A DNA stretch of 64,000 bases from an uncultured bacterium (GTDB lineage Bacteria > Chloroflexota > UBA5177 > JANWHV01): positions 256,001 through 320,000 of the forward strand of contig CAWHAE010000010.1 in assembly GCA_963827235.1 (NCBI GenBank), given 5' to 3'. The notes under the pieces are model-generated. The model was not told the DNA's origin. It saw only the letters and a program-made list of their open reading frames with translations, and did not search any database. Made by a program: the position numbers and the translations under genes. Of the stretch, positions 32,177 to 52,864 are shown piece after piece; position 1 is the first letter of the stretch; the number at the start of each line of letters is the position of its first letter.

Positions 32177-35043
32177 AGATTACCCTCTACCTTCGCTATG
32201 CCACCCGCTCGCTCTGGCGCGGCGGTAGGCGCACCGGGCTGGCCGTCCTATGTGTGACAGTCGGCGTGATGGCCCTGGTCGCGCTGCAACTGATAGGGCT
32301 GATGGCCAACGACGCCCTCACCAGCAACATTCGCGCCGTGAACGGCGGCGATCTTGCCGTCTCACCGGCCGCGGGGAGTTTTACCGCGCCCGACCTGCGC
32401 TTCTTCTCCTGTCTGCGCGCAGGCATCGCACCTGCCGAGCGCGCCTCGTGCGCCGCCGCGCACCTCAAGGCGAACGGAGAGATCCTCGAATACACCGCCT
32501 CTGCCGGTGGCGGAGCTACCGCCTATCCATCGGATGGGCGAACGGTGCTCGTGGTCTTACAGGTGGTGAACACCAGGAGTGACCCTGTCGCCGGGGCTCC
32601 ATACCCGCTGGTGGGCTCGCCGGCCCTCCAGCAGCCACCAGGCGCCGATTTTCAGCGGCTGTTGGCCGCCGGCGCCAACAATGCCATAGTGACCAAGAGC
32701 CTGTTCGATGCCGTGGGCGAGCCCCTGGGATCCACCGTGCGGGTGGCCACTGCCGGCAGCGCGGTCTTCAGGGTGACCATCGCCGGGGTATTGGCCAATG
32801 AGGGCGCCTACGCGCTGGGTACTCCCCAGATGGTGATCCCGCGCACTCTCCTCCGTGCGGTAGCGCCTGATCAGGCAGGCCTGTACAACACGGTCAATCT
32901 GACCACCAGCAACTCGGCGCGTACCAACCAGGTGCAAACCGATGTGCAGGCGCATTTCCCCCTGGTCACCCTGACTACCACCGAGTCCCTCTTGCAGCAA
33001 AGCAAGCAGCAGGTGGATTACGTCCGCAAGTTCCTACAAATCGTCGGCTTGATGGCCTTGTTGATCGGCGGTGTGGGCATTGCCAACACGATGCAGGTGC
33101 TGTTGCGCCGCCGCCGCATCGAGATTGCGATGCTGAAGACCACCGGCTATCGGCGTCGTGATTTGTATGTGCTCTTTGGCCTGGAGGCTGGGTTGCTGGG
33201 GCTGGTAGGCGGTGTGCTGGGGGCGAGTGCCGCCGTGGGCCTGGGTCTCGGCCTCAAGAGCCTGGCCGAGGCGGCGCTGAGCCTTTCCCTCCCCTTTGCG
33301 CTTGACTGGCCCACCGTCGGGTCAGGCGTGCTGATCGGCGTGGTGACGGCCCTGGTTTTTGGCCTCCTCCCGATTGTCAGGGCCACCGCCGTCCGCCCGC
33401 AAACCGTCCTCCGAGAGATCGAGGAGCGGCGTGGCTGGCGCAGCCGAATTGTGACTGCCGGCTTGCTGTGCCTGCTCTGCTTTGTGTTCTTCCTCGTAGC
33501 TACCGCGATCATGGGGGATCTGATCTGGAGTGCCGGTGTGGTTCTTGGCGGCGCGTTCCTGGTGGGAGTACTCAGTCTCGCGTTTACCGGCATCGTCTGG
33601 TTGCTCAGCGCCCTCCCCGTCCCCGAACGGGCGACGCCCAGCTATCTGCTGCTGGTGACCGTGGCGGTGGCGGCCACCGTGGCCCTAACCGTGGCCTCAC
33701 CGGCCTTCGGCCTCCTGGCGCTCCTGGGTGCCCTGCTTGGCTATGCACAACTGTTCTTTCCGCGTCGCTGGAAGGCCATGGTGAAGTTGTGTTTGCGCAA
33801 CATCGGACGGCAGCGAAATCGTACCGTGGCAACTCTTCTGGCGCTCTTTGTGGGCGTCTTCTCGGTCAGTTCGGTCCTGGTCCTGGGTCAGGGCATCAGC
33901 GACAAGCTCCAGAACGGCATTGCCAACAGTGTGCCCTACAATATGATTGCCAGGGTACCGACAGACCAGCAGGCCGCAATCGACGCGGCACTGGTCACCC
34001 TGCCGGGATTGGTCCATGTGGGGGCCGACCAGCCACTGGTGGTCAATACTGCCTACCAACTGACGCCCGTATGCGTCGGCAATAAGCCGATCAGCGCCTT
34101 CATCACCCCTGGGTCCAGCACCAACGCACTGGGCCAACTGAGCAGTGTGCAAGGCTACGATCTGGCGCGCTATCCCGGTGGGGTGCCCAACGTGAGCATG
34201 GCCTCCGGCAATGCTGCCGGCCGGATGCTGACCGTCGCAGACGCCGGCACCACGGCCGTTCTGGCTCGAAGCAGCTTGCGGAACGCTCCCTTCCATCTCC
34301 GGGTAGGCAGCACAGTCACGCTGTTCAACGCACTCGGCGCTGGTCCTGGGGCCAGCGGTGCGGGCAGTGTCGCTTGCGGCACCCTCGGCCAGGGTCGTGG
34401 GCACCAGGGTGTCACCACCGTCACCATCGCCGGCTTCTATAGCCAGCCGTTCCTGACTCTCGACCTGGTCGGGCTCTATGGGAGCGATCGGTTGGTGCGC
34501 GCGATCGGCGGGCGCCAGACCGAGATCACCTGCTATCTCAAGGTGGGCAGCAACCAGACGGGCACCGCGGTACGGCTCCTGGGACTCGCCGCGCCAAAGG
34601 CGTACATTATCAACACATCGGACTTAGCGGTGACAATCAACCAGCTTCTGAGCAAAGTGGTTACGGCGTTGACCGCTGTGGCCGGGCTCACGCTCTTGGC
34701 CGGGATCCTCATTATCGCCAACGCCGTTGCCCTGGCCATGTTGGAGCGGCGACGCGAGGTTGGCATTCTCAAGTCGGTGGGCTATACCAGCCGCACCGTC
34801 CTGGGGCAAGTCCTGGTAGAGAACTGCTTGATCGGCGCTCTGGGCGGCTTCCTGGCGATGGCTCTGGTGACCGCGCTGATTTTCGTGCTCAGCAGGGCAG
34901 TCTTCCAGACGAGCTTGGAGGTGGGGATTCCGATCACCTTCCTGGTGATCCTGGGGACGATGGCGCTGGCGATGACCATCGCCGGGCTGGTCGCCTGGCG
35001 CGCCGTTCGGGTGCGCCCGGTGGAGGTGCTGCGCTATGAGTGA
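32173..35043 (+). CDS. FtsX-like ABC permease (duplicated MacB/FtsX domains)
   Basis: GIANTMQVLLRRRRIEIAMLKTTG and IIANAVALAMLERRREVGILKSVG; ends RPVEVLRYE. Confidence 0.93.
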   Translation: MKITLYLRYATRSLWRGGRRTGLAVLCVTVGVMALVALQLIGLMANDALTSNIRAVNGGDLAVSPAAGSFTAPDLRFFSCLRAGIAPAERASCAAAHLKANGEILEYTASAGGGATAYPSDGRTVLVVLQVVNTRSDPVAGAPYPLVGSPALQQPPGADFQRLLAAGANNAIVTKSLFDAVGEPLGSTVRVATAGSAVFRVTIAGVLANEGAYALGTPQMVIPRTLLRAVAPDQAGLYNTVNLTTSNSARTNQVQTDVQAHFPLVTLTTTESLLQQSKQQVDYVRKFLQIVGLMALLIGGVGIANTMQVLLRRRRIEIAMLKTTGYRRRDLYVLFGLEAGLLGLVGGVLGASAAVGLGLGLKSLAEAALSLSLPFALDWPTVGSGVLIGVVTALVFGLLPIVRATAVRPQTVLREIEERRGWRSRIVTAGLLCLLCFVFFLVATAIMGDLIWSAGVVLGGAFLVGVLSLAFTGIVWLLSALPVPERATPSYLLLVTVAVAATVALTVASPAFGLLALLGALLGYAQLFFPRRWKAMVKLCLRNIGRQRNRTVATLLALFVGVFSVSSVLVLGQGISDKLQNGIANSVPYNMIARVPTDQQAAIDAALVTLPGLVHVGADQPLVVNTAYQLTPVCVGNKPISAFITPGSSTNALGQLSSVQGYDLARYPGGVPNVSMASGNAAGRMLTVADAGTTAVLARSSLRNAPFHLRVGSTVTLFNALGAGPGASGAGSVACGTLGQGRGHQGVTTVTIAGFYSQPFLTLDLVGLYGSDRLVRAIGGRQTEITCYLKVGSNQTGTAVRLLGLAAPKAYIINTSDLAVTINQLLSKVVTALTAVAGLTLLAGILIIANAVALAMLERRREVGILKSVGYTSRTVLGQVLVENCLIGALGGFLAMALVTALIFVLSRAVFQTSLEVGIPITFLVILGTMALAMTIAGLVAWRAVRVRPVEVLRYE

Positions 35044-35759
35044 CCGGACACCAGCCGCCATCGGCCGCACGAGCAGAGCGCTGCCTGGGTGGTGGCTGGC
35101 TCTGAGGGCGGTCCGGCGAATCCTGAGATAGGGACCGGTCGACCGCCGCACTTCTGCGATGCCGTCTGCCGCGCAGCAGCCCGCCGTGTCCAGCGCCAGA
35201 CTAATGCCCAACAGCACGGCGCTGCCCGGGCCCGCCGGTGTCGTTTCGCGCATCCGGAGGGCGTGGCTCGTCAGCGTGAGCAACGCAGGCAGCGCGAAGC
35301 AGCCTGGCGCGCCCTGCTTACCCGCGAACGAGACGAGTGACGTGCGGCCGCTTTTTCATTACTCTGGGTGCAAGTCTCAGAATCTGCAGTGCGCTCAACC
35401 CGACGACGGCTCGGGCCGGCACAGGGCAAGCAGTGATGGTCCGTACATTATGAAGATGCGACAGCACGCAAAGCTCTGCGAGAGGAGCGCAGCATAAGCC
35501 GCTCCGGGCTTCACTCTTGACCAACCCTTTTGCAGTTGCACACTTTATGCGGGTCTGCACTGTAGTGGTCGACGTAGCCTGCGCCAGGCAGCAGCGCGGA
35601 GCTGGCGATCGGATCGGGAGCGCAGCCCGCTCGGCGATTCGAGGAGGTGGAGTTCGCCGATTTGCCTTCGCCGTGGAGATCTTGCGCCTGGGTGCGCAAT
35701 ACGATCGGAGTGAGGAGTCGGCGGCGATTGTCGCCTCAGGGCTTGACCCGCGAGATGCG

Positions 35760-36043
35760 CCGGACTCCAGGCGATGCCGGCCCTCCTGCTGCACCCGCGA
35801 CAGGCCGCCGCGGCCAATCAGGTCGCCGGTCAGGCGGTCGTACGCCGTCCACGTATGGACGCCGTCAGTCACCCACCGCCCGGCCATACGATCCGCTTCG
35901 CCTCCGGGCTTCTCCAGGGTCCAGACGCCGAACCACGCGGCAACCGCCGGGTCCTGAAAGAGCCGCCACACGCTCTCGGCGTGCCGTGGACCGACGGGCT
36001 CCAGCCGAAGACGCGAAGTGAAGCGCACACGCGCCGGATCCAT
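35760..36043 (-). pseudogene. RimJ/RimL-type GNAT acetyltransferase, N-terminal relic
   Basis: FTSRLRLEPVGPRHA...DPAVAAWFG...LIGRGGLS; similarity is lost after RHRLE. Confidence 0.6.
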
Positions 36044-36109
36044 GGGCACAATCTCTCCAGGCAATGGGGTGTCGTCAGCCCGGTGCCTGCGTACCTACGA
36101 AGATACCAG

Positions 36110-36290
36110 AGGCCGCATCAGGGCCAGTACGAGTTGCGAGAACTTCTCCCGTATTCGCCCGCGCGCGAACTGGACTCTGATCGCCGGGTCGACTGTGCCG
36201 TCGATCAGAGCAGCCGGCGTGTCGCGGGCGGAGACGTCCGTGATGTCGCTCGCCATGCTGCTGTCTACTATGTTCACGATTTGAGGTAAC
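36110..36290 (-). mobile_element. IS110-family transposase internal relic
   Basis: NIVDSSMASDITDVSARD..AALIDGTVDPA...ARGRIREK..QL..AL resembles the IS110 segment NIKLSSVASDI.GVSGR....LARGRLR.K. Confidence 0.6.
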
Positions 36291-36758
36291 GGCGCTCTGG
36301 TCGCACGGAGCGGACGTTGGGCTTTTCGCCGAGCCCGCCGCGCATCGAGCGGACTCACGTATGAAGATGCAACCTCACGTTCGCCGTCGTGGGGCGATGG
36401 CCTCGTGAGGTGACGGGTGATCTGGCTGGCCCGACTAGTCGTGCCTGGGCGCAAGGACTTCGGGTTGGGTCATACACTGGACCGAGTTTCAACGTAGAGC
36501 GTGCCCGCCTGCAGGCATGCAGCGTGGCCCACGCCTCTATCGTCGACAGCGCACCTAGCAAGAGGTGGCGAACAGTTGAGCACACGTGGAACCGTGGCGC
36601 AGAGATGCCAAGCGCGCCTGGTAGAGTGCACGCCGCGCACCTAGTCCTCCCGCGGCCACAGAGTGGTATGACGGGGAAAACGTCGGGCTAATTGTCAGTG
36701 TAGAATTGTGTGTGTCCGAGCATCGTATTGATTTCTACAGAAGCAGAAGGGGCTGCAC

Positions 36759-37295
36759 ATGGCCGTCAATGCGTATCTCAACTTTACTCTATATGATGGC
36801 ACCACTCTCACGTCTGAATCGCAGAACACGGTACACCCAGGATGGTCCGAGGTTGCCGACTTCAGCTTTGACATCGAGCAGGTCCTCAATATAGGGTCGG
36901 CCAGTGCGGGCGCGGGTGCGGGGAAGGTCACGTTCAACCCGTTCTCGATCACGAGAAAAGTGGATATCAACTCCCCAATTCTCTTTGAGATGTGCTGCTC
37001 CGGTACACCCTTCAAGTCCGTTGACCTGGCTCTCCGCAGGGCTACCGGCGCCTCCGGTACCCCGAGCGCCACGCAGGATTATCTGGTCTTCTCGTTCAAG
37101 TTGGTCGCCGTGCGCACGATCAGCTGGGCCCAGGGAGATGAAGGGCCCGGTGAGGTTATCACGTTTGAGTATGGCGGATTGGATATCTCCTATTACAAGC
37201 AAAATGCCGATGGGAGTTATGTTGCCAAGCCGGCGTTCGCAGGCTGGAACCGGGTGAAGAATCTTGCGGACACGGCGACTGCGGTCATCCAATGA
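36759..37295 (+). CDS. hcp: Hcp1-family type VI secretion tube protein (orphan)
   Basis: MAVNAYL..SESQNTVHPGWSEVADFSF..GAGAGKVTFNPFSITRKVDINSPILFEMCCSG..EVITFEYGGLDISYYKQNADG..AGWNRVKN. Confidence 0.9.
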   Translation: MAVNAYLNFTLYDGTTLTSESQNTVHPGWSEVADFSFDIEQVLNIGSASAGAGAGKVTFNPFSITRKVDINSPILFEMCCSGTPFKSVDLALRRATGASGTPSATQDYLVFSFKLVAVRTISWAQGDEGPGEVITFEYGGLDISYYKQNADGSYVAKPAFAGWNRVKNLADTATAVIQ

Positions 37296-37831
37296 CAGAC
37301 GGGGAGAATCAGAGTATGAGCATGCTCGAAGAGACCGTAGCCGCGTTGCAGCGCCGGGTAGAGGCGCTCGAGATGGAGAATACCGGACTGCGCCGGCACG
37401 TGCAGGGTCGTGCGCTTGCCGATCAGCCGACGAGCCGCCGCCGCCTGTTGTTCGGCAGTGCGGGGCTGCTTGGGGCGTTGGCCGGAGGCTCGCTGTTGGC
37501 GCACACTTCGGTCGCATCCGCCGCATCCGACCCGCAGGTCGAGGACCGGCAAGTAGCCACCCTTCGCATCTCTCCGACGGTCATGCGCAGTAAAGGCGTG
37601 TACTGGGCTGAACATGCGTGGCACCTGGGACCCCAGTTCAAGGGCGATCGCGCGCCGCTGGTTATTGCCACGGCGACAGACGACTACATGCACCGCGATG
37701 TGACCGTGCAGTGTTCCTGCTCGGTACGCGTTGAGGGGACGCCCGGTGACTATGTTGCGGTCCTGATGGTTCGCGGGATTAGCAGCCACGCACGGAGTGT
37801 CGACGTTCAGGCCGTCGCATTTGGCGACTGA
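37292..37831 (+). CDS. Hypothetical protein: N-terminal coiled coil, then a twin-arginine signal-like segment
   Basis: ATGA overlap with the hcp stop; LEETVAALQRRVEALEMEN; SRRRLL + hydrophobic stretch + ASA. Confidence 0.72.
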   Translation: MTDGENQSMSMLEETVAALQRRVEALEMENTGLRRHVQGRALADQPTSRRRLLFGSAGLLGALAGGSLLAHTSVASAASDPQVEDRQVATLRISPTVMRSKGVYWAEHAWHLGPQFKGDRAPLVIATATDDYMHRDVTVQCSCSVRVEGTPGDYVAVLMVRGISSHARSVDVQAVAFGD

Positions 37832-37839
37832 ATGAGCCG

Positions 37840-37883
37840 GGTGGGCCGTCCCATCGCCTCCAAAGGCGATGGGACGGCCCACC
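37840..37883. terminator. Perfect 20-bp-stem hairpin closing the hcp operon
   Basis: GGTGGGCCGTCCCATCGCCT-CCAA-AGGCGATGGGACGGCCCACC. Confidence 0.75.
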
Positions 37884-38071
37884 TATTGGCCAATCCGAAG
37901 AGCATTGTGGCAGTGGATGTCGGCACTGCACGCAGGATATCTTGACTCTCGGTGCCGGCCACGAGATTGAGAATGCCATTCAGCTGGTCTTGCCCTCGCC
38001 CACTTTATTGGTTGGCCGCCATATAGAGGCAACAAGCCGCTAGCGTGCGTACTGCAGTACGATTGTGGCAA

Positions 38072-39178
38072 ATGCGGAACGCTCTCCACGCCATCGCACT
38101 CATATGGCTCACCTGGGCGCTGGCCGCGGCGCTCCTACCGTTGCACGCCGGCGCGGCTACCAGTGCCGCCTGGCTTACGACGGCGTACGAGGGGTCCGCG
38201 GCAGGGAGCGTCCAGGGCACGCGGCGCCCGGCTGTGCCGAGCTACAGCCTGTCCTATCCGCCGGAGTGGGCTCTCCAGCGGTGGCCCGACACGCTGGCAA
38301 CATTCGGCCAGCTTTCGCTGTGGTCGCCGTCTGGTAGTGTCGTCGACCTCGTGATCGTCCCTCTCAGACCGGGCGGACCGACGCTCCACGACGTGATCGA
38401 CCACGATGCCGCGTTTCTGCACGGCACCACGCGCGAGCCGGTAGCACTTCCTCTCGGCCGCGGCACGCGGCTGACGGGGGTGCCGGCTTCTGCCGGCATG
38501 GTTGAGACTGTGCTCTACGTGCGGCACATGGGCTTCGTGTACCGCATCAACGCCGACACGACGGCCGGCGGCCTACCGGACAGGACACTGGATGTGCTTG
38601 CCGCCGGCATCCACGTGCCCGCCAACGCCGCAGTGTCACCCGCGCGACCACCTTCGCATCTTCCGCCGACGGGATCGTGCTGCCATTGCCCCGCGTGGGG
38701 GTACGGATGGGGGCGCGTCCTCACCAGCCTGGATGGCGTACAGGTCTACTCCAACGCCGGTGACGTCGACAACGGTTGCACGAGCACCTACGGCATCTCG
38801 TATCAGTGCGTGGAGCTGGTTCAACGCTATTTCTCCATCCGGTGGGGCTACCCCGCCATCTGGCAGGGCGTGGCTGCGGCTGCCGACATGCGAACGCACC
38901 ATCCGGCGGGTGTCATCTTCGTGCCGAACGGCGGCTCGCCGGCACCCCGACGAGGCGACTCCGTGCTGTTTTACGGCGGCGGATTCGGGCACGTCGCGTT
39001 AGTGTCTGCGGTCGACAGGAAGGCCGGAATCGTACGTCTGGTTGAGGAGAACTGGTCGCCTACCGGCACCGCCAGCCTGACAGTGTACCCTGACGGGACT
39101 GCCGGCATCCGTGACAGCGCCTTCGGGTCCTATATAGTTGCCGGCTGGCTCCACAGTGTGAAGAACAGGGCGCCGTGA
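38072..39178 (+). CDS. Secreted CHAP-domain amidase
   Basis: Signal peptide; YQCVELVQRYF (Cys), GDSVLF, FGHVALVS (His), LVEENWS. Confidence 0.85.
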   Translation: MRNALHAIALIWLTWALAAALLPLHAGAATSAAWLTTAYEGSAAGSVQGTRRPAVPSYSLSYPPEWALQRWPDTLATFGQLSLWSPSGSVVDLVIVPLRPGGPTLHDVIDHDAAFLHGTTREPVALPLGRGTRLTGVPASAGMVETVLYVRHMGFVYRINADTTAGGLPDRTLDVLAAGIHVPANAAVSPARPPSHLPPTGSCCHCPAWGYGWGRVLTSLDGVQVYSNAGDVDNGCTSTYGISYQCVELVQRYFSIRWGYPAIWQGVAAAADMRTHHPAGVIFVPNGGSPAPRRGDSVLFYGGGFGHVALVSAVDRKAGIVRLVEENWSPTGTASLTVYPDGTAGIRDSAFGSYIVAGWLHSVKNRAP

Positions 39179-47888: not shown

Positions 47889-50800
47889 TTAGCCTTGCCC
47901 GGCGACGATCTCGCGCACCATGTTATTCCCGGTGTCGGCGACATAGACGTTGACGCCACGTGGGAGCCGCGCTCCCCGATACACAGCGTACGTCGCCACG
48001 CCATAAGGCTGATCCAGCTCTGCCCGCGTCGCCGGGCCGGAGCCTCCGGCGAGACCAGTCACGCCGGTACCGGCTAGGGTGCGAATTGGGTCGGTGCTGG
48101 ACAGTAGAGGGCCGCCCACTTGGCGGATGACCTCACGCACCGCGTCGTTGCCGGCGTCGGCGACGACGATGTTGCCCATGTAGTCCAGAGCCACGCCTCG
48201 CGGCTGGTTAAGCTCAGCCTGGCCGGCCTCCCCACCGTCGCCCGCATAGCCCTGTTCGCCGTTTCCGGCCAACGTGCTGATCGCCGGTGTACCTTGCCTC
48301 GATACCCGGCGAATCACGTTGTTTCCGGTGTCGGCGATGTACATATCACCCCACCCGGCATAGGATCCATCCGGCCGGATAGCGACGTCCTCCGGTCCGC
48401 GTAGCCGCGCCTGGGCGGCGGTGCCGCCGTCGCCACTGTAGCCTGCCATGCCGTTCCCGGCCACGGTGCTGATCCTGTGGGCGGCCAATATGACCTCGCG
48501 AATCCTGTTGTTTCCCGTGTCCGCGATGAACAGGTTGCGGTGACTGTCCACAGCGACGCCACACGGTCCGTCCAGCATGGCCGCAGTCGGCGGGCCGCCA
48601 TCTCCGTCGAACCCGGCCTGGCCATCGCCGGCTACGGTCGATATGATGCCGGATCCGAGGTCCACCTCGCGGATCGCGTTGTTGCCCGTATCGGCGATAT
48701 ACAGCAACTCGTCGCCGGATAGCGCCAGGCCCTCGGGCGCGTTCAGCCGAGCGGCGGCAGCAGGTCCGCCGTCGCCGGCGTAGCCGGGCAGGGTGCTGCT
48801 GCCTACCTCCTGCGTCAGGAGGCCGGTCGACGCATGCAGCTCCATTACGCGATTAAACAGCGTGTCCGCAATGAAAACATTGCCGTGGGAATCCACCGCA
48901 AGTGATCGCGGTTCATCCAGGCCGGCCTGGACAGCCGGTACCTGCCAAGAGAAAGCGCCGGCCTTCCCCGTGCCCGCCGCCGTCAGCACCGTCGCCGAGA
49001 CGGCCTGCGGTGGTGCGCCGACCTCGCGTATCATGTCGTTGCCCGAGTCGGCAATATAGAGGTTGCCTGCAGCGTCGAGGGCGATGGCGCTAGGCTGACT
49101 CAGCTCCGCCTGGATCGCCGGGCCACCGTCTCCGCTGAAACCGCCGATAGTGGCGGCCTGGAAGCCCCCGTGCTTGGCATCATAGCCGCCGCGATAGGCA
49201 GCATACCCGGTGCCGGCGACGCTCATAATGATGCCGCTGGCTGCGAACACTTCGCGTACCGTGGCACAGCCGCTATCCACGATATACAGATTGCCCGCGC
49301 GGTCCAGCGCGAGGCCGGTTGGCCGGATCAGCCCGGCTGATTGTGCCTGATCCCCGTCTCCCACACATCCGTACGTCGTGGGCCCGGTCCCAACTCTGCC
49401 GTGAGGGCCCGAGACGAAGCCATTCCTGTCGGCGGCAGCGTAGAGGTGGCCGGCGCTATCCACGGCCAAGCCCTCCGGCCGGCTGACCTCGTCTATACCA
49501 AGCACCGCGGTGATCACGTGACGGCTCAGGCTCAGCTTGAGCAGGACCACGCCCTGGTCCGAGGTGCCGTAGGCAATGTAGAGATTGTCCTCCCGATCGA
49601 TGGCCAGCGCGTGGGGTGCCAGCAGCGGCGCGACAGGAGCCGCAACGCCCTGAGCGAGGCGCCCGGGATTGTTGCTGGCGGACACGGTCGAGATGATGCC
49701 GCTGCCGGTGTGCACCTCCCGGATACGCTGATTCCCGCTGTCGACGATGTACAGATTGCCGGCGCTGTCCAGCGCCAGCCCTTCCGGCGAGGCCAGCAGC
49801 GCCTTCGTGGCGGGGCCACCATCGCCGCCGTCGCCTCGTGTGCCGGTGCCGGCGAACGTTGTGATGATGCCGGTTGCCGCGTCCACCCGGCGGACCTGCT
49901 GGTTATTGGTGTCCGCAATGTACAGGTTGCCAGCGCGATCGACCGCCACGCCTTGCGGATGATTGAGCCATGCCCGCGTGGCAGGCCCGCCATCACCGCT
50001 GTGGCCGGCGCGTCCGGCGCCTGCGACGGTGAGAATCTGTCCGGCACGCGGTCGCGCTGGCGTGCCCTGCAGCCTGCTCCGCCCGAGGTCAGGAGTTGGC
50101 TGTGTGGTCGGGGTGGCCGTTGCCGGCGGCGTGGACGCGCTGCTCTGCTTGAGGGCGTCCGCGGGCGCGAAGACCTCGCGCACGACGTTCGCCTGTGCAT
50201 CGGCGATGTAGAGATCACCCTCGCCATCCACGGCGATGCCCTGAACACAATCGAATTCCGCCTTCGTGGCAGGCCCCGCATCGCCGCTATAGCCGACCTG
50301 GCCGGTGCCCGCGACCGTGAAGATGGCCCGGGATGAACGCTCCACCATGCGCACCACGTTGTTGCCGTCCGCGATGTAGAGGTCGCTCTGCTGGTCCACA
50401 GCCACGGATGTTGCCAGAAACAAAGACGCCTGCGTAGCCTGCCTGCCGTCGCCGCTGTACCCGCTGTGGCCGCTGCCCGCGACCCCGATTACCCCGCCAA
50501 CGGCTGAGATCTCGCGCACGCGCATATTCCCGGTGTCGGCAACGTACACGTTGCCGCGTGCGTCCGCGGCCAGTCCGCTCGGATCGTACAGGCCGTCGGT
50601 GTTGCGAGCGCCATTCCCCGCTACCGTGCTGATGATGCCGGTTGTCCCGTCGACCTTGCGTACGCGCTGGTGGGCACTGTCGGCGATGAACACGTCTCCG
50701 CCGGCATCCACGGCAACGGAGACCGGGTTGATCGCGGCGTCGATAGCCGGTCCGCCGTCCCGCAGCGCGATGCTCTTGCCGGGCCCGGCTATCGTGGTGA

Positions 50801-52475
50801 TGATCCCGGTCGCGGCGCGCACCTCCCGGACCCTGCCGTTGCCCGTGTCGGCGATGAAAAGATCGCCTGCCGCGTCGACCGCAACCCCCTGCGGTGCTGA
50901 TAATTCCGCCGCCATTGCCTTGTGGCCGTCACCGGCGAACCCTGCCGTGCCGTCGCCGGCCACGGTGGTGATCTTGGCCATGGTCATCGGCCAGGACGAG
51001 TGGACCTCGCGAATGACATTGTTCCCCGTATCGGCGATGAACACATCGCCGGCCTTGTCCACCGCCAGAGACCTTGGCCCATCGAGCATCGCGCGCCGGG
51101 CACTGCCGCCATCCCCGAACCAGCCTGCCGTTCCATCCCCGGCAATGGTCATGATCTCGCCGGCCGGCATGGATGGCACGTGCGGTGACGGCGAACCATG
51201 TGCCTGCGGGGTGATGTCAGGAATCCGGATGACTGTCGGCGTACCGGCCGGCGTGGAGGTTGCGGTTGCCGCGCCGGCAACTGCGGGCGCGGCAACCTCC
51301 AGCACCTGGTTGGCATTATTGTCGGTGAGATACAGGTTGCCCGCGCCGTCCACGGCGATGCCCCACAGGTTGTCGAAGTCGAAGCTGGTCGCAGCGTCGT
51401 GCAGGTCGCAGGGGTACCTGGCTTCCGTGTCGGCAGTACCGGCTACGGTGACTATCCTGCCCGTCGGATCCACCATGCGCAGCACGTCATCGGCGGTGAT
51501 GTACAGGTTGCCTTTCCCATCCACGGCGACGTCACGAGGCTCGTAGAGCCCCACCGCGTTCGCCGTCGCCTGACCGCAGTCGCCGCCGTAGCCGCCGTTT
51601 CCGCTGCCGGCGGCCACGCTCATGACGTGGGGCGGTGCGGCGTCCACCTTGCGCACGCGCAGGTTGTTGTAGTCGGCGATGTACAGGTTGCCGGCGGTGT
51701 CCAGGGCCAGGCCACTGGGCCCGGAGAGCTTGGCCTGGATCGCCCGCACGCTGGCACACTGCTCCGGCGCGCAGCCCACGCCGCTGGCGTCGTCCCTATT
51801 GTTCCCCGCCACGGTCGTGATCGTGCGCGGGCTCGCGGTGTTGATCTCGCGCACCTCCGTGCCGTCGACGACGTAGACGTTGCCGGCGGCATCGACCGCG
51901 ATGCCTTTGGGGTCCATTGCGGCGCCGAGCGCCGGTCCGCTGGGCTCCCGGTCGGTCGCATTCCCGTCGCCGCTATCCCCCGCCACGGTGGTGATACTGT
52001 GCAGGTCGGCAGACACCTCGAGCACCCGGTGGTCGCCAGTGTCGGCGATGAACAGGTTGCCCTGTGCATCCACGGCAACACCTGCCGGGTTCTCCAGCGC
52101 GGCGTCGGTGGGCGACCCGCCGCTCGCCGCGTCGTCGCTACCGCCCCCGGCCACGGTGGTCAGGGTCCGCGTGCCCGGTTTGATCTCGCGAACCAGGCTG
52201 TTGCCGGTGTCCGCGACGAACACGTCGCCGGCTGCGCTCACCGCTATTCCCTCCGGCTCCTTGAGCGGGGGAGTGCCGCTGCCGGAGATATTCGCGATGC
52301 AGCCACGCGCCATAGCGACGCCAGGTTGGCAGAAGGGCTGCACCTGCGCCGGCCGTGCACTGGCGGCCATGACGCCTGCGGGAAGGCGGGGTCTCCAGTC
52401 TGCCGGCCGGCTCAGCCCTATCGGCAGCACCACGAACGCAACACACACGCACCGCGGTTGCCATACTCGCCACAT
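47889..52475 (-). CDS. Large secreted NHL-repeat protein (four propeller blocks)
   Basis: Many P.G.AVD..GNLYIADTGN..VR.V...G.I.TVAG.G..G.SGDGG repeats; GGGAGG RBS before ATG 52475. Confidence 0.92.
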   Translation of the reverse strand: MWRVWQPRCVCVAFVVLPIGLSRPADWRPRLPAGVMAASARPAQVQPFCQPGVAMARGCIANISGSGTPPLKEPEGIAVSAAGDVFVADTGNSLVREIKPGTRTLTTVAGGGSDDAASGGSPTDAALENPAGVAVDAQGNLFIADTGDHRVLEVSADLHSITTVAGDSGDGNATDREPSGPALGAAMDPKGIAVDAAGNVYVVDGTEVREINTASPRTITTVAGNNRDDASGVGCAPEQCASVRAIQAKLSGPSGLALDTAGNLYIADYNNLRVRKVDAAPPHVMSVAAGSGNGGYGGDCGQATANAVGLYEPRDVAVDGKGNLYITADDVLRMVDPTGRIVTVAGTADTEARYPCDLHDAATSFDFDNLWGIAVDGAGNLYLTDNNANQVLEVAAPAVAGAATATSTPAGTPTVIRIPDITPQAHGSPSPHVPSMPAGEIMTIAGDGTAGWFGDGGSARRAMLDGPRSLAVDKAGDVFIADTGNNVIREVHSSWPMTMAKITTVAGDGTAGFAGDGHKAMAAELSAPQGVAVDAAGDLFIADTGNGRVREVRAATGIITTIAGPGKSIALRDGGPAIDAAINPVSVAVDAGGDVFIADSAHQRVRKVDGTTGIISTVAGNGARNTDGLYDPSGLAADARGNVYVADTGNMRVREISAVGGVIGVAGSGHSGYSGDGRQATQASLFLATSVAVDQQSDLYIADGNNVVRMVERSSRAIFTVAGTGQVGYSGDAGPATKAEFDCVQGIAVDGEGDLYIADAQANVVREVFAPADALKQSSASTPPATATPTTQPTPDLGRSRLQGTPARPRAGQILTVAGAGRAGHSGDGGPATRAWLNHPQGVAVDRAGNLYIADTNNQQVRRVDAATGIITTFAGTGTRGDGGDGGPATKALLASPEGLALDSAGNLYIVDSGNQRIREVHTGSGIISTVSASNNPGRLAQGVAAPVAPLLAPHALAIDREDNLYIAYGTSDQGVVLLKLSLSRHVITAVLGIDEVSRPEGLAVDSAGHLYAAADRNGFVSGPHGRVGTGPTTYGCVGDGDQAQSAGLIRPTGLALDRAGNLYIVDSGCATVREVFAASGIIMSVAGTGYAAYRGGYDAKHGGFQAATIGGFSGDGGPAIQAELSQPSAIALDAAGNLYIADSGNDMIREVGAPPQAVSATVLTAAGTGKAGAFSWQVPAVQAGLDEPRSLAVDSHGNVFIADTLFNRVMELHASTGLLTQEVGSSTLPGYAGDGGPAAAARLNAPEGLALSGDELLYIADTGNNAIREVDLGSGIISTVAGDGQAGFDGDGGPPTAAMLDGPCGVAVDSHRNLFIADTGNNRIREVILAAHRISTVAGNGMAGYSGDGGTAAQARLRGPEDVAIRPDGSYAGWGDMYIADTGNNVIRRVSRQGTPAISTLAGNGEQGYAGDGGEAGQAELNQPRGVALDYMGNIVVADAGNDAVREVIRQVGGPLLSSTDPIRTLAGTGVTGLAGGSGPATRAELDQPYGVATYAVYRGARLPRGVNVYVADTGNNMVREIVAGQG

Positions 52476-52864
52476 GATGGCCTCCCTCACTCCGGTGAGG
52501 CTGCCGTGACCTCCTCGGGCACTCATCCATCCTGTTGGGCTTGAGGCTCGCGGCCCAATCATACTGCTGTTCAACTCGCTTCGCAATGGAGTAGCCGATC
52601 CTGCAGATGCACACACGGTAGTCGATCTGTCACCGCGACCGCCTGCGCACTGAGCACGCGGACCTTGCAGCATATGCAATCCATCGGCGCATTGTTCACT
52701 CCGACCGATGTCCTTGAGATTTGAGATAACATTACGCCCCGCACAGGGCGCTGGGCGCCTGGCGGCAGTACACAACGGCGCTGGTGGTCGGGTCAAGGAG
52801 CGGATGGCCGGTACCATAGGCTAGCTCTGGAGGGTACTGACCCATGTTTCCTCCATGCGGCGGC

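Follow-up and report, generated by a model that had tools for sequence, protein, structure and literature searches.

Hcp is a hallmark of type VI secretion, and finding it in the culture medium is the usual sign that a type VI secretion system (T6SS) is working. It forms hexameric rings and tubes and, within the T6SS, also acts as a chaperone of small effectors. The same holds for the orphan hcp-effector pairs of T6SS-bearing organisms, in which Hcp is the carrier or chaperone of a small effector encoded downstream. The twin-arginine (Tat) pathway is a separate export route that moves folded proteins, and hydrogenase and DMSO reductase are examples of Tat 'hitchhiker' systems. In such co-translocation, which was reportedly described by Rodrigue et al. 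1999, a signal-less subunit is exported while bound to a signal-bearing one. In Tat substrates, the twin-arginine (RR) motif sits where the n-region meets the h-region. PMC13673990 (section 6) gives its consensus as Z-R-R-x-Phi-Phi and describes class V Tat substrates such as FecR, which carry an internal, uncleaved RR signal behind a cytoplasmic N-terminal domain.

Here, we analyzed a gene pair located in a 64,000-nucleotide stretch (the window) of the genome (G000) of a Chloroflexi soil bacterium, in which a T6SS-less Hcp is paired with a protein bearing an RR leader. As judged from the sequence, this pairing suggests a new use for Hcp outside the cell. The first gene, hcp (36759..37295, forward strand, as are all features below), encodes Hcp-A, a protein of 178 aa of the Hcp/TssD family. 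By sequence profile and predicted fold, Hcp-A is a true Hcp-family protein with the Hcp beta-barrel fold. Residues 18–145 match the Pfam family T6SS_HCP (PF05638) with 69.1 bits (cut-off 23.5; E 5.8e-19), and the AlphaFold (AF2) model (pLDDT 83.6, pTM 0.80) matches Hcp1 of P. aeruginosa (1y12) with a Foldseek E of 2.3e-13 and TM of 0.73/0.81. The Foldseek search with this model gave 61 PDB matches at E <= 0.001 and, of those listed, nearly all are Hcp proteins or Hcp1 fusion constructs. An N-terminal hydrophobic stretch is absent from the sequence, in agreement with the first-pass annotation, which had described a full-length Hcp gene without a signal peptide. Compared with T6SS Hcp/TssD proteins such as P. 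aeruginosa Hcp1, Hcp-A thus belongs to the same Pfam family and has the same predicted fold; however, it scores below the cut-off of the NCBIfam model TIGR03344 (TssD, Hcp1 subfamily; 37.5 vs 58.9 bits), its variable N-proximal loop is shorter (178 aa for the whole protein vs 188–214 aa in T6SS relatives), and its genome is without the T6SS and contractile core families searched for. Among the PHROGs, Hcp-A matches only phrog_27303, a family of unknown function.

The partner gene (37316..37831) follows hcp and encodes 171 aa when counted from the conserved start. An alternative start at ATG 37292 (179 aa) would give an ATGA overlap with hcp (37292–37295), from which translational coupling of the two genes had originally been proposed. 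The letters ATGA are indeed present, but the overlap is not conserved and 'coupling' is probably wrong. In the DNA alignment of the three orthologous loci, this position reads ATGA in G000, GTGA in G001 and holds no start codon in G002. ATG 37316 is kept in 3/3 of these loci, and all full-length metagenomic orthologues of the partner (7/7, P0002–P0008) are called from it. For these reasons, the hcp stop and the partner start are most likely 20 nt apart in an operon-like arrangement, and coupling by overlap is not supported. A Shine-Dalgarno-like site, GGGGAG (37301..37306), is located 9 nt upstream of ATG 37316; in G001 the corresponding site is likewise GGGGAG, whereas G002 has CTGGAG. A sigma-70 promoter scan of positions 35000–38200 found none. 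The pair is closed by a hairpin with a loop of CCAA (37840..37883), whose perfect 20-bp stem had already been noticed at first reading and is borne out by 20 Watson-Crick pairs (37840–37859 with 37864–37883), a folding energy of -53.9 kcal/mol and a z of -7.97, with 0/200 shuffles folding as well. A closely similar hairpin follows the orthologous gene pair in G001. The hairpin has no T-run and was not flagged by the terminator pattern scan; it is likely a terminator without a U-tract.

The partner protein consists of a predicted helix, the motif S-R-R-R-L-L, a Gly/Ala-rich hydrophobic stretch, the motif A-S-A and a small beta domain, in agreement with the architecture read from the letters in the first pass (coiled coil, SRRRLL, hydrophobic stretch, ASA, small beta domain). 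The N-terminal helix (37322..37420, residues 3–35), a leucine-zipper-like coiled coil ahead of the RR motif, is modeled at pLDDT 68–86, and residues 33–75 are disordered. It gave weak matches to GCN4 and bZIP profiles, a PDB profile search with the alignment of the partner family (A1) returned weak GCN4-type coiled-coil matches and nothing else, and the pattern RV-ALE-EN--LR is kept across the partner paralogues. The twin-arginine motif (37433..37450, residues 40–45) fits the consensus Z-R-R-x-Phi-Phi as it is given in PMC13673990 (section 6). Its RR, whose conservation had been named as a point to check, is present in 14/14 full-length family members in A1. By sequence and alignment, the Gly/Ala-rich hydrophobic region and A-S-A occupy 37451..37522, and A-S-A was judged by eye to be a putative signal-peptidase I site with cleavage after residue 69. 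Two short, curated Tat-signal profiles, which make for a weak test, stayed below their cut-offs, and this counts against a Tat signal: PF10518 matches 3/15 family members with a best E of 0.29, and TIGR02811 reaches 15 bits in the partner vs a cut-off of 48.45. No Pfam family scores above its cut-off in the partner. We also considered the leader as a general Tat leader of the organism and dropped this idea, as a leader profile searched against the own genome matches only the 3 full-length partner paralogues.

The host genome encodes TatC (PF00902, 185.3 bits, G000:C8:306398-307030; TatA lay outside the search), and profiles for BamA/Omp85 and LpxC gave 0 matches. Together with a Chloroflexi MAG as relative, the latter supports the monoderm host assumed at first reading. 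The locus resembles Tat hitchhiker pairs, in that the partner has a twin-arginine signal, the neighboring Hcp has none and TatC is encoded. Unlike those pairs, Hcp and its partner are not redox enzymes and have no evident cofactor, and the partner leader contains a conserved coiled coil.

The C-terminal domain of the partner (37550..37828, residues 79–171) is a beta-sandwich in the predicted model, with a pLDDT of about 95. Its modeled shape is similar to that of H-type lectins and phage receptor-binding tips. Using VIA-align, the C-terminus of the LKA1 tailspike scored Z 8.1, Helix pomatia agglutinin (2ccv) Z 7.9 with an rmsd of 2.9 A over 84 residues, SLL-2 (3wmp) and discoidin I (2w94) Z 7.3 each, and the R2-pyocin fibre Z 6.7. 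Overall, the structural matches of the model (residues 78–171) span Z 6.6–8.1, rmsd 2.5–3.5 A and 76–87 residues, where a Z <8 possibly reflects a common arrangement according to the tool. In a Foldseek search with the domain, the best matches had an E of 0.009–0.012, with a probability of 0.97–0.98 for the two best agglutinin chains. The partner domain may thus have a small beta-sandwich like that of H-type lectins and of the C-terminal tips of phage tailspikes and R-type pyocin fibres. In contrast to H-type lectins, however, the partner family shows no sequence match to Pfam H_lectin (PF09458; 0/15 members of A1 at E <= 5). In the ESM Atlas, no lead exceeded 0.90; the leads were actinobacterial and viral clusters, and clusters of H_lectin or Gp53-like_C scored 0.86. 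The partner has no match among the PHROGs.

Among 401 genomes of the phylum, the partner family is found only in one genus (g1). Within this Chloroflexi genus, the association of Hcp and partner occurs in four diverged versions. Type A, Hcp followed by the partner, is the orthologous pair of G000, G001 and G002. Type B, with a 16-nt spacer, is located on contig C12 of G000, and type C, a short Hcp followed by the partner, on contig C9 of the same genome. In type D (contig C141 of G003), the order is partner, DUF6345 protein and then Hcp; the DUF6345 protein (737 aa) has no sequence relative in the PDB. A partner next to a DUF6345 protein was further found on contig C60 of G002 and in G004. In the tree, the Hcps of types A and B/D fall into different Hcp clades. 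Conservation of the gene pair, which the first-pass annotation had wanted to see tested, therefore extends from the orthologous pairs in G001 and G002 to diverged paralogous associations in G000 (C12, C9), G003, G004 and G002 (C60). Since the G000 assembly has a contamination of 9% and far exceeds its relatives in size, some of its 'paralogues' may come from co-binned strains. As to the surroundings of these modules, an ECF sigma factor adjoins the Hcp cluster on C9 and one fused-Hcp locus, and STAND or LuxR-type regulators flank three Hcp-partner pairs. G000 also encodes a tandem double-Hcp protein; two tube-like domains are likewise found in VgrG/gp27.

When 1.84 billion representative proteins were searched with a profile, 47 of them scored at E <= 0.001. 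Many metagenomic proteins carry the N-terminal module of the partner, a coiled coil plus an RR leader, joined in cis to an Hcp domain. PF05638 scored above its cut-off in 8/8 tested leader-Hcp fusions, including P0170, in which inspection by eye showed the RR signal but no coiled coil. For P0145, another fused protein, 120 relatives were listed; 25 of these are 245–272 aa long, and RR is located at residues 41–62 in every one of them (25/25). Other cargo of the leader includes a pectate-lyase-like domain and fibre-like proteins. Furthermore, inspection by eye revealed signals or anchors in cis in other Hcp-domain proteins of the phylum and in one of a Solirubrobacterales MAG (G154, G263, G035, G199 and L054). 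The sequences of the leader-Hcp fusions provide independent support for a link between Hcp and Tat. They show that Hcp can be cargo of the leader, and do not speak to a separate Hcp riding along. In the literature, subscription journals and supplements excepted, we found no description of a signal-peptide- or Tat-linked Hcp, of a T6SS-independent Hcp in monoderms or of a coiled coil ahead of a Tat signal.

The reading that we favor, tentatively and at somewhat less than an even chance, is that of an operon-like module of monoderm Chloroflexi in which an Hcp of T6SS ancestry works together with a Tat-exported, lectin-like partner by hitchhiking on it. We infer that the partner depends on Tat: its leader, made up of the leucine-zipper-like helix, RR, the hydrophobic stretch and A-x-A, would send the lectin-like domain across the membrane by this pathway. 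The signal-less Hcp would physically bind the partner in the cytoplasm and be carried out together with it, so that the partner would serve to export or anchor a protein without a signal of its own. Outside the cell, the two might then have a joint role, for example in a carbohydrate-binding surface or in matrix assembly. Counting against co-export, the assembled Hcp hexamer measures ~9 nm across and is thus about as large as typical Tat cargo or larger.

Alternatively, Hcp could stay in the cytoplasm as a ring-shaped chaperone or docking factor that keeps hold of either the leader with its coiled coil or the folded lectin domain up to the moment of export, similar to Tat proofreading chaperones or to T6SS Hcp with effectors in its lumen. 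Such a role would fit the missing signal of Hcp-A, the recurrence of Hcp-partner adjacency in several versions and the leader helix, whose conservation among the paralogues is not usual in a Tat n-region. However, many relatives have the Hcp domain as cargo of the very same leader, other Hcp domains of the phylum carry signals in cis, and the fused forms would export the chaperone along with its client. The leader-Hcp fusions and the cis signals on other Hcps of the phylum therefore indicate that Hcp of this kind is normally found outside the cell, and we consider a purely cytoplasmic function rather doubtful.

Another explanation would keep the partner in the membrane by a Tat signal-anchor of class III or V that stays uncleaved, with the coiled coil oligomerizing in the cytoplasm, the lectin-like domain facing outward and Hcp docking on the coiled coil within a device for sensing or anchoring. 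Indeed, with RR located 40 residues from the start and behind a conserved helix, the leader could equally be an internal signal of class V (FecR-like) that escapes cleavage and has its N-domain in the cytoplasm; class V substrates such as FecR are described in PMC13673990 (section 6). As in these substrates, the RR of the partner is preceded by a structured N-terminal segment, here of about 35 residues; in contrast to them, this segment is a single helix and not a globular domain, and A-x-A follows the hydrophobic region. Profiles of FecR and anti-sigma factors found no match in the partner. The ECF sigma factor and the STAND or LuxR-type regulators mentioned above would suit a sensing device. 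Nevertheless, we regard anchoring as decidedly unlikely. The A-x-A-like motif seen by eye after the hydrophobic region of family members and inspected fused forms suggests cleavage, the hydrophobic region itself is Gly/Ala-rich and comprises only 17 residues, and in the fused forms it is Hcp that would face outward.

A further possibility is an ordinary orphan hcp-effector pair that reached the genus from a T6SS-bearing proteobacterium by horizontal transfer and has since become a relic, or else relies on a T6SS encoded in the unassembled part of the genome. The nearest relatives of Hcp-A (47–59% identity) are mostly from Alphaproteobacteria, with TssC directly upstream of hcp in 10/10 tested loci. 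Given that these relatives are tube proteins encoded within T6SS clusters of Alphaproteobacteria, hcp was probably acquired sideways. In the Hcp tree, the sequences of the genus form an unresolved clade with proteobacterial Hcps of T6SS context, the G002 copy being placed just outside; the root is arbitrary, and the direction of transfer is accordingly not set by the tree. With 56.2%, the G+C content of hcp is lower than that of the genome (65.2%) and of the flanks (64.8–66.9%), as the description of an AT-rich hcp had stated. In addition, G000 is 95.9% complete and not closed. As in orphan hcp-effector pairs, a small gene directly follows hcp, and the partner domain, which has about 100 aa when mature, would fit into an Hcp lumen. 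Unlike in those pairs, there is no T6SS here, the partner has its own export leader and a lectin-like instead of a toxin fold, and no immunity-like third gene was seen at the locus.

Regarding the machinery itself, no T6SS gene was found in the window, which agrees with the first-pass annotation. The whole-genome search for T6SS and eCIS genes, set beforehand as the refuting test, likewise revealed no core family in the 95.9%-complete G000. Here, TssB (PF05591), TssC (PF05943), TssK (PF05936), TssF (PF05947), gp25/TssE (PF04965), VgrG/gpD (PF05954) and the phage sheath (PF04984) gave 0 matches at E <= 0.1, with TssG, TssA, TssJ, TssL and ClpV lying outside the T6SS profile set and the T4 gp19-type tube family outside the contractile-tail set. 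Each of the family searches scored in E. coli, one of 14 control genomes. TssM (PF06761) and PAAR (PF05488) were found in 0/5 genomes of the genus, and no T6SS core family was found in 5/5 of these genomes. TssC is present in 0/301 genomes of the phylum, 5 of genus g1 among them, and Hcp in 15/301. Furthermore, codon comparison with the G001 orthologues (dS 0.42–0.46 for the pair) indicates that both genes are under purifying selection, with a dN/dS of 0.148 for hcp and of 0.158 over the last 124 codons of the partner, which speaks against a relic. Of the searched genomes, only those of the genus contain the partner family, no partner-like gene was seen at the examined T6SS loci, and the association exists in four diverged versions. 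Altogether, an ordinary orphan pair appears very improbable.

Finally, Hcp and the lectin-like protein could belong to an apparatus not recognised so far that resembles a tail or forms tubes, with its remaining components encoded elsewhere and too divergent to be caught by existing profiles; we regard this as most improbable. In its favor, the tandem double-Hcp protein recalls VgrG/gp27, the partner domain resembles the tips of phage tailspikes and pyocin fibres, and the leader also carries the pectate-lyase-like domain and the fibre-like proteins. However, the sheath, gp25, gpD, TssF and TssK profiles were without a match, the modules are small and lie dispersed between genes unrelated to one another, and no relative of the partner family or of the fused protein P0145 was found in viral contigs. 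A phage origin of the module is therefore not supported.

Returning to the favored reading of a hitchhiking Hcp, the Hcp-family domains found here and in the wider metagenomic set occur without a T6SS and are tied to general export signals, which are of the twin-arginine type in cis or in the next gene and of the Sec type in other relatives. If the reading is true, automatically annotating such genes as 'T6SS' would mislead, not only in Chloroflexota but probably in further monoderms as well. It would also mean that Tat exports a ring-forming, phage-derived protein, possibly by hitchhiking and beyond the classic cases of redox enzymes. The coiled coil ahead of the Tat signal would then be a feature of the leader, perhaps with a role in oligomerization or proofreading.

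A broader scenario, which we deem unlikely, is that monoderm soil bacteria reuse the T6SS tube protein as a Tat-exported building block. The coiled coil and RR leader would export phage-tail-like modules, namely Hcp rings, lectin-like or receptor-binding tips and tailspike- or fibre-like proteins, and the coiled coil may oligomerize and thereby present several signals to the three-fold TatBC receptor. Outside the cell, these modules would assemble into a minimal, sheath-less adhesin or nanotube, and the Hcp of the genus would have lost its own leader and hitchhike on the lectin-like partner. Were this scenario true, the locus would encode a Tat hitchhiker pair of non-redox proteins and give Hcp a route that is independent of the T6SS.

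Regarding the immediate neighborhood, a CHAP-domain gene (38045–39178) was considered as a further part of the module and dropped; it lies beyond the hairpin, and in neither G001 nor G002 does it adjoin the pair. Two observations in G001 count against the favored reading: the type B partner stands there without a neighboring Hcp, and both partner copies of this genome are disrupted right after RR. For the type A copy, the disruption consists of a 2-nt deletion and a TAG, and it reflects either an assembly error or real decay.

The gene at 36759-37295 (+) encodes a 178-aa protein that both sequence and predicted fold place in the Hcp family. Its open reading frame matched the Pfam family T6SS_HCP with 69.1 bits (cut-off 23.5, E 5.8e-19) and scored 37.5 bits with the NCBIfam TssD subfamily model, which lies under the cut-off of 58.9. 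For the AlphaFold model, built from a 40-row alignment (pLDDT 83.6, pTM 0.80), the best true Hcp structure was P. aeruginosa Hcp1 (1y12; E 2.3e-13, TM 0.73/0.81, 24-26% identity). The N-terminus (MAVNAYLNF...) is a typical Hcp start without a hydrophobic leader. These data bear out the first-pass annotation of an hcp gene lacking a signal peptide, and its remark on AT-richness also held, with 56.2% G+C in hcp versus 65.2% in the genome. Compared with the orthologue in G001, another genome of the same Chloroflexi genus, hcp showed a dN/dS of 0.148 (dS 0.42-0.46 across the hcp and partner comparisons). The ~1.7 kb 5' of hcp (35044-36758) holds no convincing gene; the sole profile match is a truncated GNAT acetyltransferase fragment at 35318-36064 (-) (PF13302, 25.9 bits, profile positions 1-84 of 138). 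The corresponding place in G001 and G002, the latter also of this genus, is taken by a large divergent regulator (BTAD-NB-ARC-TPR, or cyclase-AAA).

The host genome (G000; 7.98 Mb, 21 contigs, 95.9% complete, 9% contaminated; window at G000:C10:256001-320000) gave no match at E <= 0.1 for TssC, TssB, TssK, phage sheath, VgrG/gpD, TssF or gp25/TssE, and all of these searches had E. coli matches within a set of 14 control genomes. Neither TssM nor PAAR turned up in any of the five genus genomes. Across the phylum sample, TssC was found in none of 301 genomes and Hcp in 15, a count that includes all five members of the genus and one unpublished genome (G018) on which no other result depends. As the search for the defining families of sheath, baseplate, spike and membrane complex named above yielded none of them, the system is not a T6SS, and the lack of T6SS genes first noticed in the window extends, for these families, to the genome. 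Since Omp85/BamA and LpxC were not found either, and TatC is present at 185 bits, the host looks monoderm, as had been supposed, with a Tat system and, on the families searched, without any known contractile machine able to use Hcp.

The gene just 3' of hcp (37292-37831, +, 179 aa in its longer reading) encodes the partner, which showed no Pfam family above cut-off. In its model, with residues counted from the ATG at 37316, a helix (residues 3-35) is followed by a disordered stretch (33-75) and a confident beta domain (79-171). Within the disordered stretch, S-R-R-R-L-L precedes a hydrophobic run rich in Gly and Ala, and A-S-A comes after it. Tat signals are described in section 6 of PMC13673990 as a Z-R-R-x-Phi-Phi motif, a weakly hydrophobic region and A-x-A, and the same source reports TatBC as a 3:3 complex. 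The partner's sequence fits this description of a Tat substrate, and it falls below threshold in curated Tat-signal profiles. The two genes had been proposed to be translationally coupled through an ATGA overlap, which did not hold up: across three orthologous loci this position has ATGA in one, GTGA in another and no start codon in the third. ATG 37316, which GGGGAG precedes by nine bases in the window, is kept in all three, and all seven full-length metagenomic orthologues (P0002-P0008) are called from the equivalent start. Because this ATG is conserved and the ATGA position is not, the genes are most likely separated by 20 nt. The perfect 20-bp hairpin said to close the pair (37840-37859 with 37864-37883) was confirmed, folding at -53.9 kcal/mol (z -7.97) without a T-run, and a closely similar one is present in G001. 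Against the G001 orthologue, the last 124 partner codons have a dN/dS of 0.158 and the first 38, with few sites, 0.84. Just past the hairpin, 38045-39178 (+) encodes a 377-aa protein that starts with a hydrophobic leader and has a CHAP (cell-wall amidase/peptidase) domain at its C-terminus; in neither G001 nor G002 does it adjoin the pair. At 47889-52817 (-), 10 kb downstream of the pair, the window encodes a 1642-aa beta-propeller repeat protein of the NHL/teneurin type.

The beta domain belongs to no sequence family, and none of the 15 family members matches H_lectin. By structure, its model resembles the C-terminal domain of phage LKA1 tailspike gp49 (Z 8.1), Helix pomatia agglutinin (Z 7.9; Foldseek E 0.012, probability 0.98), coral lectin SLL-2 and the H-lectin domain of discoidin I (both Z 7.3), the AP22 and phi297 tailspikes (Z 7.2 and 7.0) and R-type pyocin fibre tips (Z 6.1-6.7). 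As Z values below 8 may, according to the comparison tool, stem from a widespread arrangement, we describe the predicted domain as similar to lectins or receptor-binding tips, without assigning it to the H-type lectins.

The partner is rare: a collection of 5.8 billion sequences yielded 11 proteins at E <= 0.001, and 47 of 1.84 billion representatives scored with the family profile. It occurs in 5/5 genus genomes and 0/36 others of a first sample, and among 401 phylum genomes true members are limited to the genus; five non-genus matches (E 5e-5 to 8e-4) span the signal region only. Both the pairing and the RR motif proved to be conserved, with orthologous pairs in G001 and G002, four diverged arrangements within the genus, and RR in 14/14 full-length members of the 15-row family alignment. 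In that alignment, paralogues sharing no more than 33-42% identity still keep the N-terminal heptad pattern RV-ALE-EN--LR. Neighbouring genes were called with a crude in-house GC3-based routine, so that gene calls are approximate. Type A, Hcp followed after ~20 nt by the partner, is found in the window, on G001 C8 and on G002 C701. In type B (G000 C12), the Hcp is another one (171 aa, 89.6 bits), and the partner begins 16 nt after it. Type C (G000:C9:138251-142813, equal to L070:7252-11814, minus strand) comprises a 518-aa NHL-repeat propeller protein, a short Hcp-like protein (148 aa, 25.3 bits), partner paralogue C, a SAM methyltransferase, a 293-aa protein carrying two Hcp domains in tandem, and an ECF sigma factor; it is a second, larger Hcp cluster of the host genome, with the NHL-repeat protein, smaller than that of the window, directly adjoining. 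In type D (G003 C141), a 737-aa DUF6345 protein on the opposite strand separates partner and Hcp; G002 C60 and G004 C217 carry partner and DUF6345 protein, the G004 Hcp lying at the contig end. This neighbour of the partner in three genomes (737-754 aa, N-terminal leader, weak DUF6345 match of 26.9-29 bits; L067:9475-11688 (-), L068:133-2397 (+), L066:2-1732 (+)) has no sequence relative in the PDB. The pairing has exceptions: G000 C18 holds only a C-terminal partner fragment and no Hcp, and the G001 type B partner lacks an adjacent Hcp, a truncated type B Hcp being on another contig. Both G001 partner genes (G001:C8, L062:8709-9369; G001:C10, L063:9032-9885) are interrupted just past the RR codons, type A by a 2-nt deletion and TAG, and their lectin-like parts 3' of the interruptions are still conserved with mostly synonymous changes. 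Either the two genes were truly inactivated at one and the same site, or an assembly error recurs there in a GC-rich repeat. G000 exceeds its relatives in size and is contaminated, so that some of its paralogues may stem from co-binned strains, which leaves the argument unaffected.

A subset of the partner-profile matches covers only the first 70-90 profile positions, namely the leader of coiled coil, RR and hydrophobic region. In seven of these (P0145, P0152, P0157, P0158, P0159, P0163 and P0165; ~242-255 aa) the leader, read by eye, is followed by an Hcp domain, and in P0170 an RR signal precedes one; PF05638 was above cut-off in all eight fusions (42.8-103.7 bits). Other leader-bearing matches continue into Gly/Ala-rich fibre-like domains or a pectate-lyase-like domain. 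A search with P0145 gave 608 proteins at E <= 1e-10. Among the 120 matches listed, 25 have 245-272 aa, all with RR at residues 41-62 and, by eye, a heptad-rich N-terminus before it; eight others (P0237, P0240, P0259, P0265, P0267, P0273, P0283, P0294; 182-205 aa) pass from a Sec-type-looking signal peptide, again by eye, directly into the Hcp N-terminus. N-terminal signals or anchors were also read by eye on Hcp-domain proteins of phylum-sample genomes G154, G263 (with RR), G035 and G199. In the host genome, the leader profile finds only three full-length partner paralogues, so the leader is not general to secreted proteins there; it accompanies Hcp, either fused to it or encoded by the adjacent gene. 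Judged from these sequences, Hcp domains of this kind serve as cargo of the same leader in relatives. In G199 (L031), an anchor or signal and collagen-like G-P-x repeats precede Hcp, and a Solirubrobacterales MAG (L054) combines an RRRR-anchor, such repeats and Hcp. In G162 (L029), Hcp continues into a propeller- or tachylectin-type-lectin-like region by eye, cut by the contig end.

Within the genus, Hcp has no leader itself, and the four diverged versions of the association each place it near a gene that encodes one. As the simplest mechanism we tentatively favour, at somewhat less than even odds, that Hcp would bind the partner and be exported with it through Tat, and that both would act jointly outside the cell, plausibly binding carbohydrate on surfaces or cells. 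The conserved coiled coil before RR could oligomerise precursors or bind Hcp. An Hcp remaining in the cytoplasm as chaperone or dock is rather unlikely; it would agree with the leaderless Hcp of the genus and sits poorly with the cis fusions. The coiled coil could also stay cytoplasmic as part of an uncleaved anchor, and a partner anchored in the membrane, whose cytoplasmic helix would hold Hcp, is a doubtful reading, compatible with the helix before RR and less so with the A-x-A behind it. Hcp export with the partner, our preferred reading, shares its logic with Tat hitchhiker pairs, but here the proteins are not redox enzymes and the leader carries a coiled coil. The layout is similar to orphan hcp-effector pairs, whereas here a T6SS is lacking and the partner has no toxin fold. 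In the open-access literature searched, we found no description of Tat- or Sec-linked Hcp, or of T6SS-independent Hcp in monoderms, and the pair is of clear interest to the T6SS and Tat fields.

The nearest non-genus relatives of the window Hcp (47-59% identity) come mostly from Alphaproteobacteria MAGs, plus one MAG each of Burkholderiaceae and Solirubrobacterales. The gene directly upstream of hcp was TssC (VipB, 430-464 bits) in 10/10 loci tested; TssF came after (4/4 tested), as did gp25 (1/1) and ImpE (1/1). In a tree of 42 Hcp domains with arbitrary root, five type A genus sequences share a supported clade (95/99) with the ten proteins of these T6SS loci; branching order within it is not supported, and the G002 copy lies just outside. 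Because these relatives sit in T6SS loci and share this clade, in agreement with the lower G+C, type A Hcp was likely acquired from a T6SS-bearing lineage, although the direction of transfer is not established. The Hcps of types B and D group with plain 162-aa TssD-like proteins in the other main clade. That the pair is a relic of a transferred T6SS pair would suit this origin and, given the low dN/dS of both genes, is very unlikely. Least probable is an unrecognised tail-like apparatus: the tandem Hcp of C9 is reminiscent of the two tube-like domains of VgrG/gp27, and none of the sheath or baseplate families searched was found in the genome.

Full-length fusions lie on five metagenome contigs (L091, L093, L094, L096, L097; the last two near-identical). 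Their common neighbourhood includes a divergent 489-524-aa MTS/PrmA-type methyltransferase (4/4 tested) and, downstream, a large 725-945-aa Big_9/cadherin-repeat protein (3/3 tested), to which L093 adds an ECF sigma factor and a likely anti-sigma gene. This neighbourhood may itself constitute a separate conserved system. Methyltransferase and sigma factor are seen again at the C9 cluster of the host genome, and a methyltransferase adjoins the type D partner of G002.
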